NCBI GenBank assembly: GCA_022143435.1
Contig: GCA_022143435.1_3941.1
Source: a phage
DNA length: 64,000 nt
Direction: 5' to 3' (one strand)
Within the stretch, counting starts at the first letter, position 1, and each line of letters starts with the position of its first letter. The position numbers and the translations under genes were made by a program. A model generated the notes under the pieces. The model saw only the letters and a list, made by a program, of their open reading frames with translations. It ran no database searches and was not told the origin of the DNA. Below, in pieces: positions 15,549 through 29,559 of the stretch.

Positions 15549-15809
15549 ATGAAAATTGAACACTGCTATGAGTCTGACGGAACACCTATACGTTGTCCAC
15601 ATTGTGGGTGTACAGACTTGCAAGGTGAAGTTCATGTGATTGTTAATGGTCATATAGCTGAAGAAAGTACTACATGTGTTGGTTGTGGTGAGCAACTATC
15701 ATTCTGGGCTTATGGTTCATACCAACCCTCTCCACATTTTATCTACCATCGTAGTAAAGTTGTGAAGAGTGTCATCAACTGGTTCATTAAGAAAGGGTTT
15801 ACAAAATGA
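15549..15809 (+). CDS. zinc-ribbon protein
   Basis: CPHCG...CVGCG cysteine pairs. Confidence 0.45.
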   Translation: MKIEHCYESDGTPIRCPHCGCTDLQGEVHVIVNGHIAEESTTCVGCGEQLSFWAYGSYQPSPHFIYHRSKVVKSVINWFIKKGFTK

Positions 15810-16351
15810 TTAAGCTAATATTTGCAAGTGGTGAAAACGGTGAATTTGGTACTCCAACTGGTATGCCGTGGCCTCGACATAAACAGGACATGCAAGAGTT
15901 TAAGAGACTCACTAAAAACAACTTAGTAGTGATGGGGAATGAGACTTTCAAGACTCTGGGTAGTAAACCTTTACCAGAACGTGCAAACCTCATCTTAACA
16001 AACTCTGTACCATACTTAGGCATAGACTTTGGCAAAGATGAGGTAATGTATGCTAAGGCCAGCAAAGAATCCTTTGGAGCATTTTTGAAGTATCTCGATA
16101 GCTCTATTGATGAAGATATCTTTGTAATTGGTGGTGCAGGTGTCCTTGTCAATGCTTTACCATATGCTGGTGTAGTTTTCCATACAGTTTTCCATAAAGT
16201 TACTGAAGAGGCCACTGTGTATTTACCTTTTGAAAACTTCTTTGAGAAGCTGTATGATAACCGTGTATTTACAAAGGTACAGTCAAAACCCTCAGATGAT
16301 GGTAAAGCAACCTTTGAGATTTATGTTCCACAAGTAAAAGGACACTTTTGA
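15806..16351 (+). CDS. folA: dihydrofolate reductase
   Basis: N-terminus MIKLIFASGENGEFGTPTGMPW and LVVMGNETFKTLG match the DHFR fold signature; next to thymidylate synthase. Confidence 0.85.
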   Translation: MIKLIFASGENGEFGTPTGMPWPRHKQDMQEFKRLTKNNLVVMGNETFKTLGSKPLPERANLILTNSVPYLGIDFGKDEVMYAKASKESFGAFLKYLDSSIDEDIFVIGGAGVLVNALPYAGVVFHTVFHKVTEEATVYLPFENFFEKLYDNRVFTKVQSKPSDDGKATFEIYVPQVKGHF

Positions 16352-16352
16352 T

Positions 16353-17252
16353 ATGTCACAAGCTGATTTGAGTTACAAAAATATCCTGAACCATGTTTTA
16401 TCCGTTGGTGAACTGCGTACTACACGAACTGGGGATGTTATCTCTGCATTTGCTCCACCACAGTTTCGTTTTGATATGAGAACTGGTTTCCCACTCTTAA
16501 CATCTAAACAGGTGTTTACACGGCAAGTTATTGGGGAAGCTTTATGGTTCCTGAATGGTGAGAATAAACTTGGTGAACTCCGTTATCGCACTTGGGGTGA
16601 AAATGATGGAGAACGTTGGACTATCTGGTCAGATGATTTTAAACGTTGGTTAAGCTCTAACTATTCTTCTGAGCAAGACTGGTTAGAAGATGCAGGTGGG
16701 AGAATCTACGGGGTTCAGTGGAGAAACTTTGAAGGTCATAATGGTTGTGTTGTAGACCAGTTAGAAACCTTAGTAACGAAGATGAAAGGTGATATCACAG
16801 ACCGCTACATGCTTGTTAATGCTTGGAATGCAGCAGATATTGCAGCAAACTCGATGGCTTTAGCACCTTGTCATGTTCTGTTTCAGATTTATATCACCAA
16901 CGAAGGTGAAGTAGATTTGCAATGGTATCAGCGTTCTGTAGACACATTTTTAGGACTTCCGTTTAACATTGCATCTTATGGTTTTATTCTGGAAGTTCTT
17001 TGTAAGATGACTGGATACACCCCACGGTACTTGATAGGTGTCTTTGGGGATACTCAGATTTATCAGAACCATATGAAGCAGGTTTATGAACTGATAAACA
17101 ATGAAGAGTTCCATGCACCTACTTTTGAGATTGGTGTGCAGCTTAACACTTTAAGTGACTTAAAACATCTTACTGCAAGTGATTTTATTGGTGGCATTAA
17201 CAACTACCAACATGCAGGGAAGATTGAAGCACCTCTGTCAGTAGGCAAGTAA
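16353..17252 (+). CDS. thyA: thymidylate synthase
   Basis: Active-site region ALAPCHVLFQIY and LQWYQRSVDTFLGLPFNIASYGFILEVL. Confidence 0.9.
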   Translation: MSQADLSYKNILNHVLSVGELRTTRTGDVISAFAPPQFRFDMRTGFPLLTSKQVFTRQVIGEALWFLNGENKLGELRYRTWGENDGERWTIWSDDFKRWLSSNYSSEQDWLEDAGGRIYGVQWRNFEGHNGCVVDQLETLVTKMKGDITDRYMLVNAWNAADIAANSMALAPCHVLFQIYITNEGEVDLQWYQRSVDTFLGLPFNIASYGFILEVLCKMTGYTPRYLIGVFGDTQIYQNHMKQVYELINNEEFHAPTFEIGVQLNTLSDLKHLTASDFIGGINNYQHAGKIEAPLSVGK

Positions 17253-17260
17253 AACAAAAA

Positions 17261-17282
17261 AGGCTCCCGTAAAAAGGAGCCT
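17261..17282. terminator. bidirectional terminator hairpin between convergent genes
   Basis: AGGCTCC-loop-GGAGCCT flanked by A-run on plus (T-run on minus). Confidence 0.6.
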
Positions 17283-17288
17283 TAAACT

Positions 17289-17660
17289 TTATTTTTCAGT
17301 ATTCTTTGTGTTCTTTTCAGTAATAGCTTGGAGGGCTGATACTGATTGAGCCAGATTGTTCACACTGTCAGAGAATTTATCAAGAGTTTTGGTAAGTTTT
17401 GCGTTTTCACCCTTAACATTCTCTAACTGAACTTTCTGGTTCTCCATCCCTAGCTGAATCAGTCTCATGTCAGACTGTAAATCACGAATAGCTGAATAGT
17501 TACTTTTGGAATAATTATCTAGCTGCTGTAACTTTGTTGTGACAGACACTTCTTGTTTACCACTTGAAACTTGCATAGTGGTATACATCCCAATAACACT
17601 AAAAATACCAACTACAATTGCACCAATATTATTTTTAAAAGCTTCCTCTAGCCACTTCAT
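17289..17660 (-). CDS. membrane-anchored coiled-coil protein (possible lysis/holin-like or spanin-like)
   Basis: N-terminal TM segment IGAIVVGIFSVIGMYTT then long heptad-like region; last gene of the tail-fibre operon. Confidence 0.4.
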   Translation of the reverse strand: MKWLEEAFKNNIGAIVVGIFSVIGMYTTMQVSSGKQEVSVTTKLQQLDNYSKSNYSAIRDLQSDMRLIQLGMENQKVQLENVKGENAKLTKTLDKFSDSVNNLAQSVSALQAITEKNTKNTEK

Positions 17661-17855
17661 TTATTTCTCCCCCTTAAAAGCTTTTTCTAAGTTATCTACG
17701 AACTCATCATCAATAGGTGTGTCTGTTTTACTCGCAAGGTATCTTGCAAGCTTAAAGAACACTTTCTCAATCATGTATTCACTTAGAAGGGATAAAATGA
17801 GTTTCCAGAAGAAGCTACCTAGATTTTTTAGAAGAATTGCTAGGATTGTAGGCAT
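17661..17855 (-). CDS. hypothetical small protein
   Basis: 64-aa ORF, hydrophobic N-terminus. Confidence 0.4.
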   Translation of the reverse strand: MPTILAILLKNLGSFFWKLILSLLSEYMIEKVFFKLARYLASKTDTPIDDEFVDNLEKAFKGEK

Positions 17856-17934
17856 TTAATCACCTCATCAGCCAAGATGGTGAGAATACCCATAAAGAAT
17901 ATTAACACCATCTTAACAATCAGTCAACAAGGGA

Positions 17935-20325
17935 TTAAGCAGTTCTTACCCAAGCCATTAACTTGTAGAACTGGTTAGTAACACTAAATGCTGAACCAGA
18001 ACCTGTACCACCAGTGTTACCACTAACTGTATGGGTGTGAGCACCAATACCTACAGAGTGGGTGTGAGCACCAGTGTTACTTGTAGTACCAGACCATGTG
18101 TGTGTATGGTTACCAGTTGTGTTAGTGTTAGGGAACTTGTTATCAGTTCTGTCAAGCCAGTCAAGAGTTCTCGTCTTGTTATTGCTAACAGTTGTATAAC
18201 CGTACTGAGCATCACCACCATTAACCAATAGTAGACCTAAGTGGTGAGCGTGGTTACCAGCAGCACTTGTTGTACCACTTACAGAGTGAGTATGACCACC
18301 AGTGCTATTAGTGCTCTTCGTACCATAATCAAAAGATGAAGTGGTAGCAGAGAAACTATGGGTGTGTGATGGTAAGTTACCAACAGCTAACGTCACAGAA
18401 TCTGAACCGCCAGTTGTAGCAACATCTGAACCGTTTGCTGCTGCAATCCTGATAGTTCTACCAACACCATTGTTAAGGTACGTCCAAGTTAGACCAGGAA
18501 GTGCCGTATTAGGGTCAACATTACTGTTAAACCACGTTACAATGCCTACTGGATAGATTTTGTTAAGGTCTGTAGAGTCACTGATTGCTTCTGCAATCTT
18601 CTGGTCAGTTTCTGCTTTAGTATATGCACCGATATCTGAGGGTGCTGGTTTATCTTGGTCTGTATAGATTTTAGCCCATGTATTCTCAAAACCATACCCA
18701 TCTCGTGCTGTCCTGTACCAAATACCACCATTCCTGTAGCTAAACTTCAACTGTGCAGTTGGTGTTGAGCCACCACCGATATACATCTGATAAACCAGAT
18801 GTGTTGAACCACCAGATTCCCTTGTAACATTATACAAACCAGTTCTAGCATTCCAAGCAATACCATCCCCACCACCAGCCTCTGTACCATTGCCAGTAGA
18901 GATAGCATACATGTACCTATAGTCTGCGGTAGATTGCGTGTAATATCTAGCATCTAAGTTAGCCCAATCAGAAGGTTGAACTTGACCAGTAATGGCTAAA
19001 TTCTTATTCGCAACAATTGCTGATGGTTCAAGGGCAATTTGAGTACCAGAGTAACTATTGTTTAAGGTTACCACATTAGAGTTTGGGCCACCTACACCTA
19101 ACCACCACCTCGATACGTTCGCGGTATCCACACCACGGATATATAGTGGTTGCCCCTGTGTCAAGTTTCTTAATACTAAACCTTCGTTATTTGCTACGAT
19201 AGTCTGCACATTCACAAATGTGTTAGCAACATTAAGTTTAGGCAGGTTACTCAAAGTTGCGGCTGGGATATATCTAGAGTCAATGTTAGTCCAATCAGAG
19301 GGTTGAACTTGACCAGTGATTTTTACACTCTTATTAAATGTAGCACCAGACGAGTTTAAGACAATTGAGGTGTTGCCCTTGTAATCGTAAAATGTGATAT
19401 TGTCATTTGCATCACCTTTACCGATATACCACAGATTATTGTTTTCAACATCTTTTGCTAGGATGAACAAAGACTCATTAACAGCTTTATTTTTTAGCAT
19501 GATAGCAGCAGCATTAGAGCTGACACTAACATAGTTGCTGAAGGTGTTTAAACCACTAAAAGTGTTATTAGCAGTTAACTGTGCAAACCTCTGATTAGCT
19601 GCTGTCTGAGTAAAATATCTAGCATCTAAGTTAGAGAAGTCAGATGGTTGAACTTGACCAGTGATTCTTAGGGTTTTACTAATAGCAGCAACACTAGACA
19701 GATTAACTTCACAACCTGTCTTGTAGTTGTGGATAATAACATTGTCATTCACTGAACCATTACCTACATACCACCTATTAGCACCAGTGCTATCCTGACC
19801 TCTAATATACAACGGTGAGTTCTCAGAAGAGTTTTTTAGTCTAATAGCTTCACCATTTGCTTGAATAACCTGTTGGAAGGTAAAGATGTTATTTGCAGCT
19901 AATCTTGAGTATCTTGCATCATTCTCTTCATTAGTTCTCATCCCAAGTTCATTAGGACTTGGCTTATTCAGAGTATGATAAACAGTTGCCGACCTTGAAG
20001 CATCTGCAATAGTTAGTTTAAGGCCATTTGCATTGATTTTAAAAGTCTTTAAAACATCCCCAATAGTAATCTCAGAAGAGCCTGTTGGGTTAAAGACTAC
20101 CTTACCACCATAAAGTAACTTAACAATCCCTAAATCACCCGTCATAGTACTACCAGCAATCTGAACAAATCTTTCAAGTTTAAAAGATGCTAAGAAATCT
20201 TGATAGGTCATTCGACGGTCTTCATCGCCAAGCATTTCAGGTCTCTTTTTAACTCTGACATGAAGAAGGTCATCTGAACGGATTGTATCGATTGAGTTTA
20301 ATTCACTCAACTTGTAATCTGCCAT
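17935..20325 (-). CDS. tail fibre protein (distal, HxH-motif tip)
   Basis: 796 aa; three internal repeats beginning ITGQVQPSD; C-terminal His-x-His clusters ([29 protein letters not shown]) like T4 gp37 needle. Confidence 0.75.
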
Positions 20326-20371
20326 TATAAATTTTCCTCTTAAAAGGGGCTATCAAGCCCCTGTAAAGAAA

Positions 20372-21559
20372 TTAAGCTGTTCTCTGCCATACATACAGTA
20401 CGAAGGATGGCTGCTCAATGTTGAAAGCTTGTCCACCACCAACACTGTTAGTATTCCCGCTATGTGTATGCTCAGAAGAAGAAACTGTCACAGTACCATT
20501 GTGCGTATGTGAACCAATACCAACCGTATGACTGTGAGCACCGATACCTACAGAGTGAGAATGGTCACCAGTTGTGTTAGTAGTAACACTGAAAGAGTGA
20601 GTGTGTGCACCAGCTACTTCACAGACAGCATCTGCTGAGTACCATGATTGGTCATTTCTTGTAGACCAAACCATTGCAGGTCTTTCCGATAGGCCACCAC
20701 CTGCTTCATATGTCAATCTGTGGTTGTGAGCACCAGCAGAACTTGTTGACCCACTACCAACATGGTTATGGTTACCAGTCGTGTTAGTGGTTTTAGTTCC
20801 ATAGTCAAAAGAGTTAGTAGTCTTAGTTCCATAATCAAAAGCTGAAATTGACACCGTTGCATTATGAGTATGACCACCACCACTAAGAGACACAGAGTGA
20901 GAGTGTTGAGGCATGTTATTAACTGACAAAGTGACAGTTGAAGCACCAAATACAGAACCTGCTGGTCTTGTGTCAGAGTCATAACCAACCAATGCTCTAC
21001 CCTTTGAAACTAACTCCCAAGTACCTCCACAAATTAAATATGTAGAAGGGTTTGCAGAGTTCATGGAAAGATGGATAGTACCTACTGGATAGGAAGCCTG
21101 AACAGCCTTGTACAAGTTATTTACTGCTCTTGCTGTAGCATACTTATCTGCATCTTCGTTATAAAGGTTAGATGTTGTCCAGTTCTGAACATTACTCAAT
21201 CCTACCTGTGCCTTAGTTGTATTATGTGGGTTGCTCTTGTCCTGAATATGCTGTTGAACAAGATTATTAACCTCTTCTGAAGACATAATCTGTAGATTTG
21301 CTCTTGCCTGAGCTACATTAGTAACGTCTGATAAGTTATTTGCAGCAACTAACTGAAGAGCATTGATAACGTTATCTAAACCAATTTGTGTTTTAGTAAC
21401 ACCATGAGGGTTATTTCTTAGGCTTGAGTGTGGAGCAAGTAATTGCTCAAGAGTACATCTCTTATCCTCAATACCCTGCTTAAGATGGAAGATATCACTA
21501 AGGTCAATTGGTAAGGCTGCTTGAGGCAAGGCACTAATTTGAATTTCACCTACCGCCAT
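20372..21559 (-). CDS. tail fibre protein (second, HxH-motif tip)
   Basis: 395 aa; [43 protein letters not shown]; C-terminus parallels the adjacent fibre. Confidence 0.7.
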   Translation of the reverse strand: MAVGEIQISALPQAALPIDLSDIFHLKQGIEDKRCTLEQLLAPHSSLRNNPHGVTKTQIGLDNVINALQLVAANNLSDVTNVAQARANLQIMSSEEVNNLVQQHIQDKSNPHNTTKAQVGLSNVQNWTTSNLYNEDADKYATARAVNNLYKAVQASYPVGTIHLSMNSANPSTYLICGGTWELVSKGRALVGYDSDTRPAGSVFGASTVTLSVNNMPQHSHSVSLSGGGHTHNATVSISAFDYGTKTTNSFDYGTKTTNTTGNHNHVGSGSTSSAGAHNHRLTYEAGGGLSERPAMVWSTRNDQSWYSADAVCEVAGAHTHSFSVTTNTTGDHSHSVGIGAHSHTVGIGSHTHNGTVTVSSSEHTHSGNTNSVGGGQAFNIEQPSFVLYVWQRTA

Positions 21560-21561
21560 TA

Positions 21562-29559
<7,998 letters not shown>

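Follow-up and report, generated by a model that had tools for sequence, protein, structure and literature searches.

Two tandem tail-fibre genes of a Felixounavirus with gp37-type tips and hypervariable, putatively receptor-binding heads

Results

A 64,000-nucleotide stretch of phage DNA (GenBank assembly GCA_022143435.1, contig GCA_022143435.1_3941.1), called the window here and covering all but ~24 kb of the roughly 88-kb genome, carries two tandem tail-fibre genes on its minus strand at positions 17935-21559. The upstream gene encodes a short tail fibre (STF) of 395 amino acids (aa) and the downstream gene a long tail fibre (LTF) of 796 aa; "short" means only shorter than the LTF. Both proteins carry a C-terminal region homologous to the receptor-binding tip of phage T4 gp37, in which a collar is followed by an outbound needle strand rich in His-x-His (HxH) motifs, a head and a returning needle strand. 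We propose that these are the two baseplate-attached fibres of a Felix O1-like phage, that the head most likely determines receptor specificity and that the fibre genes evolve by cassette exchange, and we hold this explanation as a whole with high confidence. The window was assigned to Felixounavirus, as part of a Felix O1-like myophage of Escherichia coli; 4.1 kb at the fibre locus share 96.1% DNA identity with phage LF82P1, and the 246 phage records that match the locus are nearly all Escherichia, Salmonella or Citrobacter Ounavirinae.

The homology to gp37 was evident in both single-sequence and profile searches of the PDB, the latter made with profiles of Ounavirinae STF and LTF alignments. 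STF residues 146-367 matched the T4 gp37 tip structure 2XGF with an E value of 1.5e-27 by phmmer and 2e-28 by profile search; the corresponding values for LTF residues 649-775 were 6.9e-20 and 5.6e-23. The alignments extend from the collar across both HxH clusters. Nine HxH motifs are present in STF, four before the head (H219, H230, H264 and H278) and five after it (H319, H333, H342, H351 and H364), and six are present in LTF, three on either side (H654, H678 and H692, the last as HAHH, then H740, H754 and H763). Shuffling the tip residues gave 1.69 +/- 1.15 motifs for STF and 1.06 +/- 0.95 for LTF, so that the observed numbers amount to a 5-6 fold enrichment; other ORFs of at least 100 aa in the window contain at most two HxH each. 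The STF and LTF tips are also paralogous to each other (34% identity across 255 aligned columns, E 4e-22). An earlier reading of the window, made from the sequence alone (the sequence-only reading), had pointed out the dense HxH clusters and their likeness to the metal-binding needle of gp37, and both observations are confirmed. On these alignments, the relationship of both C-terminal regions to the receptor-binding tip of T4 gp37 is one of true homology and takes in collar, needle and head.

The layout of such a tip has been described by cryo-electron microscopy (cryo-EM) for Bas63 (Escherichia phage JohannRWettstein, sequence MZ501086). Collar, HxH needle and head are found in both Bas63 fibres, the chain doubles back at the head to reach the collar, the needle is six-stranded in the trimer owing to this return, and the LTF has six HxH with an extra histidine at 692-695 (PMC12609058). 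By analogy to Bas63, the window fibres are expected to be homotrimers. Each needle chain would run outward, turn at the head and come back, giving a six-stranded β-barrel in the trimer with the C-terminus at the collar. Each HxH, contributed by three chains, would provide six histidines per metal ion (iron in T4), allowing up to nine sites in STF and six in LTF. The orthologue cryo-EM further suggests that the conserved N-termini anchor the fibres at the baseplate, STF to wedge protein 2 and LTF to a 100-aa platform, and that both fibres are retracted along the tail sheath.

This topology changes the meaning of the similar C-termini, which the sequence-only reading took for duplicated receptor-binding tips. 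Similar C-termini, one of them FVLYVWQRTA, are indeed present and the tips are indeed paralogous. However, because the chain of the gp37 fold reverses at the head and its C-terminus runs back to the collar, the C-termini belong to the return strand and not to the receptor-binding tip. In keeping with this placement, conservation within the tip among relatives is highest over the last 27-28 residues and lowest in the head. The shared C-terminal motif was rejected as a receptor-binding tip, being a conserved return strand at the collar (mean identity 0.74 in STF and 0.93 in LTF).

Conservation was calculated as mean pairwise identity per segment in alignments of 17 STFs (A1) and 15 LTFs (A2) from Felixounavirus, Suspvirus, Mooglevirus and Kolesnikvirus. 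In STF, identity is 0.84 at the N-terminus, 0.76 in the collar, 0.53 in the outbound needle, 0.16 in the head (residues 281-316), 0.52 in the return needle and 0.74 in the C-terminal strand. The LTF tip follows a similar course, with 0.86 in the collar, 0.71 in the outbound needle, 0.15 in the head (residues 696-737), 0.67 in the return needle and 0.93 over the last 28 residues; in its rod, the N-terminus has 0.88, the module interiors 0.36-0.39, the ITGQVQPSD linkers 0.62-0.78 and the central knob 0.21. In T4 gp37, the counterpart of the hypervariable head in the alignment is the segment containing residues 938-955. The T4 host-range residues G938, T939, V941, G943, Y953 and A955 are on the head domain of gp37, in which Y949 is a proposed glucose-binding candidate (PMC5221442). 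Receptor specificity is most likely set by the head, which lies between the two HxH clusters: the heads retain only 0.15-0.16 identity, compared with 0.74-0.93 in the flanking conserved parts, and T4 host-range mutations fall within the part of gp37 that aligns with the head. The STF and LTF heads are unrelated in sequence, which makes divergent specificity of the two plausible.

Several LTFs depart from the common HxH pattern (A2 columns 750-830). In that of BPSELC-1 the head is reduced to about 10 aa and the HxH number four, and those of KEP1 and Sf13 have unrelated sequence (RGTMEITGTVGYFRSDS...) in place of the third outbound and first return HxH.

The outbound needle of STF contains a tandem decapeptide, in which Tandem Repeats Finder (TRF) detects a period of 30 with 2.0 copies and 89% matches at 20783-20841. 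The sequence-only reading described it as an exact and recent duplication of SFDYGTKTTN. It is not exact: copy 1 (GCT TTT GAT TAT GGA ACT AAG ACT ACT AAC, AFDYGTKTTN) and copy 2 (TCT TTT GAC TAT GGA ACT AAA ACC ACT AAC, SFDYGTKTTN) are identical at 26/30 nucleotides (nt), with three synonymous differences and one Ala/Ser exchange. Nor is it recent, given these mostly synonymous differences and the presence of the doublet in 15/17 Ounavirinae STFs and in T4 gp37 (DLGTKTTS-FDYGTKGTN). All 15 Felixounavirus, Suspvirus and Mooglevirus STFs aligned contain it, down to 63% protein identity. The number of FDYGTK copies per STF is 0, 2, 3 or 4, both Kolesnikvirus STFs having none and Michonne four; in the STFs of Bas63, C600M2 and SUSP2, a third degenerate copy (YDYGNRTTS) replaces two HxH motifs.

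The outbound and return strands of the 17 STFs fall into length classes of 42/31, 58/44, 62/48 and 68/52 aa, with r = 1.00, a correlation that comes from only these four classes in related sequences. Compared with LTF, which carries one FDYGTK unit, STF is longer by 21 aa in the outbound strand and by 20 aa in the return strand. Because a hairpin requires matched outbound and return lengths, the extra decapeptide unit appears to be old and compensated and to set needle length; its age is also indicated by the three synonymous copy differences. FDYGTKxTx would accordingly be an old structural repeat of the outbound needle, and gain or loss of its copies would go along with a longer or shorter return strand.

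In front of its tip, LTF has a modular rod. Three repeats of about 113 aa with the signature ITGQVQPSD, reported in the sequence-only reading also at the DNA level, were recovered by both routes. A conserved linker comes after each module, with ITGQVQPSD at residues 221, 336 and 445, and the modules match Pfam PF20744 gp37_trimer in three stretches (E 1.9e-67, 223.8 bits against a gathering cut-off of 21.7). The DNA repeat family has three copies of 79 nt at 18943, 19270 and 19615, spaced by 327 and 345 nt and 71-76% identical; as protein, the three units are 38-39% identical. They show weak similarity to T7 gp17 (4A0T). T4 gp34 (5NXH), to which the Bas63 authors likened the LTF rod, was not recovered in the PDB profile searches with LTF. 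The comparison of repeat copy number among relatives that the sequence-only reading had suggested gave a constant three in 15/15 LTFs aligned, and there is thus no copy-number variation to exploit. The interior of module 1 (LTF 146-216; 19678-19890) is common only to the window and LF82P1 among the 15 LTFs. Module 2 groups with Bas63, HK3 and BPSELC-1, and module 3 with ASO1B, LF82P3 and VpaE1; since the modules group with different relatives, the ancestry of each is separate.

The rod leads into a central knob, where homology to fibre S of phage Mu (8JU3, E 1.9e-22) covers LTF residues 473-578; the P2 H and P1 S fibres were matched as well. Among the relatives, the knob exists as three unrelated alternative modules (A2 columns 478-624; LTF 471-553; 18667-18915). 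The Mu S/P2 H-like type is found in the window, Bas63 and Felix O1, a 'GFNLGYSGFVRNN' type in LF82P3, VpaE1 and Michonne, and a longer 'KWAKIATV...' type in Mushroom, BPSELC-1, KEP1 and HK3. The junctions of the knob module are sharp and lie at the third ITGQVQPSD linker and at YT..KPTPS.

The distal part of LTF has close counterparts in T-even phages. LTF residues 661-767 are 88% identical in amino acid sequence to gene 37 of the Shigella phage SHBML-50-1, a Tequatrovirus, and window positions 18026-18341 (LTF 662-767) align without gaps to SHBML-50-1 locus L018 2412-2727 with 84% nucleotide identity over 316 nt. About 30 Felixounavirus records have the LTF head type, as do five distinct Tequatrovirus phages at 74-85% identity; one further phage of ~52 kb matches weakly (49%). 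The STF head type was found only in 32 Felixounavirus records, most of them from phages that also have the LTF head type. By tblastn, many relatives match LTF only over residues 1-667 or 1-477, and only LF82P1, among the matches listed, exceeds 80% identity over the full LTF. Judged by these matches, phages of different families share a cassette made up of the distal LTF needle and the head. The fibre genes would change by exchange of such cassettes at conserved junctions, namely the ITGQVQPSD linkers, the collar and the proximal needle. The LTF head of VpaE1 (A2 columns about 755-830) is nearly the same as the head of T4 gp37, a binder of OmpC or lipopolysaccharide (LPS); the reported hosts of VpaE1 are nevertheless limited to E. 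coli strains with B-type LPS.

The two ORFs are exactly where the sequence-only reading placed its tandem fibre genes, with an intergenic gap of 46 nt (Table 1). STF is 99.5% identical in amino acid sequence to its LF82P1 counterpart and 74% identical to Bas63 gp26, and matches PHROG 2097 'tail fiber protein' (E 6.5e-136). LTF is 95.5% identical to that of LF82P1 and 69% identical to Bas63 gp27, and matches the 'tail fiber' PHROG 4277 over its full length (positions 1-780/780, 1326 bits). The upstream neighbours encode proteins of 100 aa and 285 aa and a 489-aa Baseplate_J protein. Their Bas63 counterparts are wedge 2 (gp23, 489 aa), wedge 1 (gp24, 285 aa) and the LTF platform (gp25), followed by STF (gp26) and LTF (gp27); gp25 is the attachment point of the long fibre and, according to the Bas63 paper, a T4 gp9 homologue (PMC12609058). 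The gene order in the window (wedge 2, wedge 1, platform, STF, LTF, two small membrane proteins, and convergent td and frd) is the same in the annotated loci of VpaE1, Mushroom, C600M2, Felix O1, ASO1B and Bas63. By synteny, full-length homology and PHROG families, the region is the STF/LTF pair of a Felixounavirus, and the late baseplate operon has the two genes at its end.

The N-terminal half of STF contains the motif NPHxxTKxQ(I/V)GLxNV twice, at residues about 50-64 and 110-124 (about 21188-21412). The motif has short local matches to many unrelated tail proteins in PHROGs, and the repeats probably correspond to the "triple alpha-helix and turn" element of the Bas63 fibre. A weak local PDB match of STF profile positions 71-98 to 'short tail fiber gp92' (9ZD7) lies beside the motif and not over it. 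The STF collar matches the T4 gp10 structures 2FKK and 5HX2 and aligns with the collar of 2XGF. STF is not of the gp12 type, no gp12 chain being present among the PDB matches of STF or of the STF profile.

Downstream of LTF, the 123-aa protein is annotated as a holin in Sf13, Michonne, HK3 and SUSP2; PHROGs 4038 and 402 give both small post-LTF proteins as function unknown. A bidirectional terminator-like hairpin at 17260-17283 (AAGGCTCC...GGAGCCTT, with T-runs on either side) separates the fibre/lysis operon from the convergent td and frd genes (16353-17252 and 15806-16351; thymidylate synthase and dihydrofolate reductase). In a promoter and terminator scan of 17200-22000, counts were not above those of shuffles, and this terminator, outside the fibre genes, was the sole convincing element. 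At the baseplate-spike position of relatives, a 207-aa protein (24612-25235, minus strand) has its own HxH motif near the C-terminus, which matches H188/H190, an iron-binding motif reported from the puncturing apparatus of Bas63.

Table 1. Coordinates of the fibre genes, their segments and adjacent genes in the window.
Feature	Position	Strand	Basis or remark
LTF platform, 100 aa	21562..21864	(-)	Directly upstream of STF; PHROG 4141 full length; length and position as bas63_0025
STF gene, 395 aa	20372..21559	(-)	ORF; orthologue of Bas63 gp26, Felix O1 ORF76, Sf14 gp52
STF residues 1-145, putative N-terminal baseplate-binding region with two helix-and-turn repeats	21125..21559	(-)	0.84 identity, 17 relatives; role from Bas63
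STF residues 146-216, collar (T4 gp10 C-terminal-like)	20912..21124	(-)	Pfam PF21939 Gp10_C, E 3.1e-18
STF residues 217-280, outbound needle strand with 4 HxH and decapeptide doublet	20720..20911	(-)	Motif scan, alignment
Decapeptide doublet, AFDYGTKTTN (20813-20842) then SFDYGTKTTN (20783-20812)	20783..20842	(-)	TRF and sequence
STF residues 281-316, head, hypervariable, predicted receptor contact	20612..20719	(-)	0.16 identity; aligns with T4 gp37 938-955
STF residues 317-395 and stop, return needle strand with 5 HxH, C-terminal strand ...EQPSFVLYVWQRTA back to collar	20372..20611	(-)	
LTF gene, 796 aa	17935..20325	(-)	ORF; orthologue of Bas63 gp27, Felix O1 ORF77, Sf14 gp53
LTF residues 121-460, three variable modules (interiors about 146-216, 259-331, 373-440) and linkers	18946..19965	(-)	
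LTF residues 471-585, central knob	18571..18915	(-)	Pfam PF12604 gp37_C, E 7.4e-22, 77.7 bits (cut-off 22.5)
LTF residues 586-650, collar	18376..18570	(-)	Weak Gp10_C match; paralogous to STF collar; 554-650 block 0.86 identity
LTF residues 651-768, needle (3 outbound and 3 return HxH, one FDYGTK unit) around head	18022..18375	(-)	2XGF alignment
LTF residues 696-737, head	18115-18240	(-)	0.15 identity among relatives
LTF residues 769-796 and stop, almost invariant C-terminal strand to collar	17935..18021	(-)	0.93 identity, 15 relatives
64-aa protein, hydrophobic N-terminal segment	17661-17855	(-)	Downstream of LTF
123-aa protein, hydrophobic N-terminal segment	17289-17660	(-)	End of operon

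Discussion

The analysis describes two Felixounavirus fibres with gp37-type tips, in which a hypervariable head most likely determines specificity and segments are exchanged as cassettes. Several points weigh against this explanation. Metal binding, trimerisation and receptor binding of the window fibres are predictions from homology. A single-sequence monomer AlphaFold2 model of STF reached a predicted local distance difference test score (pLDDT) of 30.7 and a predicted TM-score (pTM) of 0.18, an intertwined-trimer fold being ill-suited to such modelling; because this model failed, the three-dimensional statements rest on homology and on published work with orthologues. No Felixounavirus fibre-chain structure was among the PDB entries found by the STF and LTF profile searches, and the density of the Bas63 fibres was insufficient for side-chain modelling (PMC12609058). 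The match between outbound and return lengths has the narrow basis given above, and the genus literature ties no receptor to either fibre. Finally, in one experiment in which Salmonella was challenged with Felix O1-like phages, the variants that became more frequent were at LTF 497 and 534, in the knob and not in the head; the central knob may for this reason also add to host range.

Four other explanations were weighed, two of which concern the nature of the tip sequences. The decapeptide doublet could be a recent 30-bp slippage duplication, polymorphic among close relatives and maybe a fresh host-range variant, as the two-copy period-30 array and the lone copy in LTF would allow. The copies nevertheless differ at 4/30 nt, three times synonymously, all 15 Felixounavirus, Suspvirus and Mooglevirus STFs sampled share the doublet with T4 gp37, and the return strand is lengthened to match. 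We rejected a recent origin on the comparative STF alignment, the T4 doublet and the matched strand lengths, and its probability is close to nil. Hardly more credible is the idea, which the sequence-only reading had named as contrary to its own, that the His-rich C-terminal part acts as an intramolecular chaperone or as a folding domain, whether cleaved or simply not involved in recognition. C-terminal intramolecular chaperones are common in phage fibres and spikes, and a separate chaperone gene was detected neither by a gp38 search of the window nor by a partial check of records with gp38/Tfa matches. On the other hand, neither STF nor LTF has a Pfam match to Peptidase_S74 or another chaperone domain at E up to 0.01, the region is homologous throughout to the mature, crystallised T4 gp37 tip, and the Bas63 tip is visible on the virion (PMC12609058). 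The missing S74-type match and the homology to 2XGF led us to reject this explanation.

The other two concern what the heads do, and both are unlikely without being negligible. The tips might be redundant, or one fibre, most likely STF, might be mainly a structural or trigger element holding sheath and baseplate. The silence of the genus literature on fibre receptors would fit this, and in retracted Bas63 fibres the STF head is lodged between domains of the sheath, while the occupancy of LTF varies (PMC12609058). The STF head is, however, as hypervariable as that of LTF (0.16 versus 0.15); since the rest of STF and the sheath are conserved, this variability fits host-driven diversification and not sheath contact. 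Both head types also co-occur in nearly the same ~30 phages, suggesting that both matter for the host. To an equally small degree we consider that the LTF head, as part of a T-even-type cassette, binds an outer-membrane protein, as T4 gp37 binds OmpC, instead of LPS. The 88% amino acid identity over 107 residues to gene 37 of SHBML-50-1 and its relatives speaks for it, as does the ability of T4-type heads to bind OmpC and/or LPS (PMC5221442). Against it, Felixounaviruses are reported to be LPS-dependent, and genome-wide screens gave no protein receptor; the known receptors of the genus are LPS core or O-antigen structures. The preferred explanation remains that of two gp37-type tips whose heads most likely contact receptors on the host.

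The origin of the LTF cassette raises the question of its folding. Gene 37 of the SHBML-50-1 type is followed in T-even phages by the gp38 chaperone gene. T4 can be freed from its dependence on gp38 by mutations in gp37 that lengthen an upstream coiled-coil segment. A gp38 query of the 64-kb window by tblastn gave a best E of 0.31 and no homologue (gp57A was not searched). Among 360 phage records with a gp38/Tfa match, 'Felixounavirus' (14 records) is outside the ten commonest name words, the tenth of which counts 4 records, a check that is partial because most members of the genus go by 'Escherichia phage' or 'Salmonella phage' names. The authors of the Sf14 study report no chaperone homologues (PMC11821841). 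By analogy, upstream trimerising elements of single-chain fibres could plausibly make a chaperone dispensable. A broader idea can be put forward only tentatively, and we consider it possible but rather less than even: the gp37-type needle would be a portable unit of adjustable length that gains and loses matched units, moves between Felixounavirus and T-even phages and folds without a chaperone, the need for one being set upstream. If so, chaperone dependence would be a matter of upstream context (the trimerising helix-and-turn motifs or the collar) and not of the tip.

The practical yield is a domain map that singles out ~40 residues per fibre (STF 281-316 and LTF 696-737) as targets for host-range engineering and shows the junctions that tolerate cassette swaps. 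Publications on close relatives have already made known the architecture with two fibres, their homology to the gp37 tip, the needle with its HxH motifs and the divergence of the tips; the scientific addition is small, and the finding is real but ordinary. The sequence-only reading is partly supported and was largely correct, being right about the gp37-like needle and the paralogous tips and wrong about the position of the tip and the age of the duplication.

Comparison with known systems

Among the closer relatives, homology of both C-termini to T4 gp37 was reported for VpaE1 gp74/gp75 in the 2015 VpaE1 paper, and Felix O1 ORF76, the orthologue of the window STF, is annotated 'putative tail fiber protein GP37'. 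The heads of VpaE1 and Felix O1 differ from those of the window, and Felix O1 matches the window LTF only over residues 1-667 by tblastn. The domain shared by Mu S, P2 H and P1 S (8JU3; PF12604) is located mid-fibre in the window LTF and is followed there by a gp37-type tip; the Mu system differs in that the window has no Mu U/Tfa-type partner gene.

The T4 gp37 tip (2XGF) resembles the window tips in its collar, needle and head, two HxH clusters, DxGTKxTx doublet and hydrophobic C-terminal strand. Its C-terminus, which we take to be ...FNYIVRLA, compares with the window fibre ends ...YVWQRTA and ...MAWVRTA. T4 gp37 has seven HxH, whereas the window fibres have nine (STF) and six (LTF). Moreover, gp37 is the distal quarter of a four-protein fibre and needs the chaperones gp38 and gp57A, while the window fibres, judging by their orthologues, are single polypeptides placed directly on the baseplate, and a gp38/Tfa homologue was not detected in the window or, by the partial check of name words, in Felixounavirus-named records.

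Sf14 gp52/gp53 (Mooglevirus; Commun Biol 2025, PMC11821841), of 391 and 792 aa and retracted on the tail, share with the window fibres a gp37-like distal tip, a gp10 C-terminal-like domain and divergence concentrated at the tip. Sf14 belongs to another genus; the related Sf13 has about 70% (STF) and 53% (LTF) identity to the window, and its LTF outbound needle has one HxH fewer. The nearest described system is Bas63 (Sci Adv 2025, PMC12609058). Both of its heads and its LTF module 1 are of other sequence types, and its STF has seven HxH compared with nine in the window, the third YDYGNRTTS unit of Bas63 taking the place of two outbound motifs. Bas63 and the window have in common the genus, the gene order, the two-fibre layout and tips made of collar, HxH needle and head, and both LTFs contain six HxH with an extra histidine at the head-proximal motif in the same numbering (H692-695).

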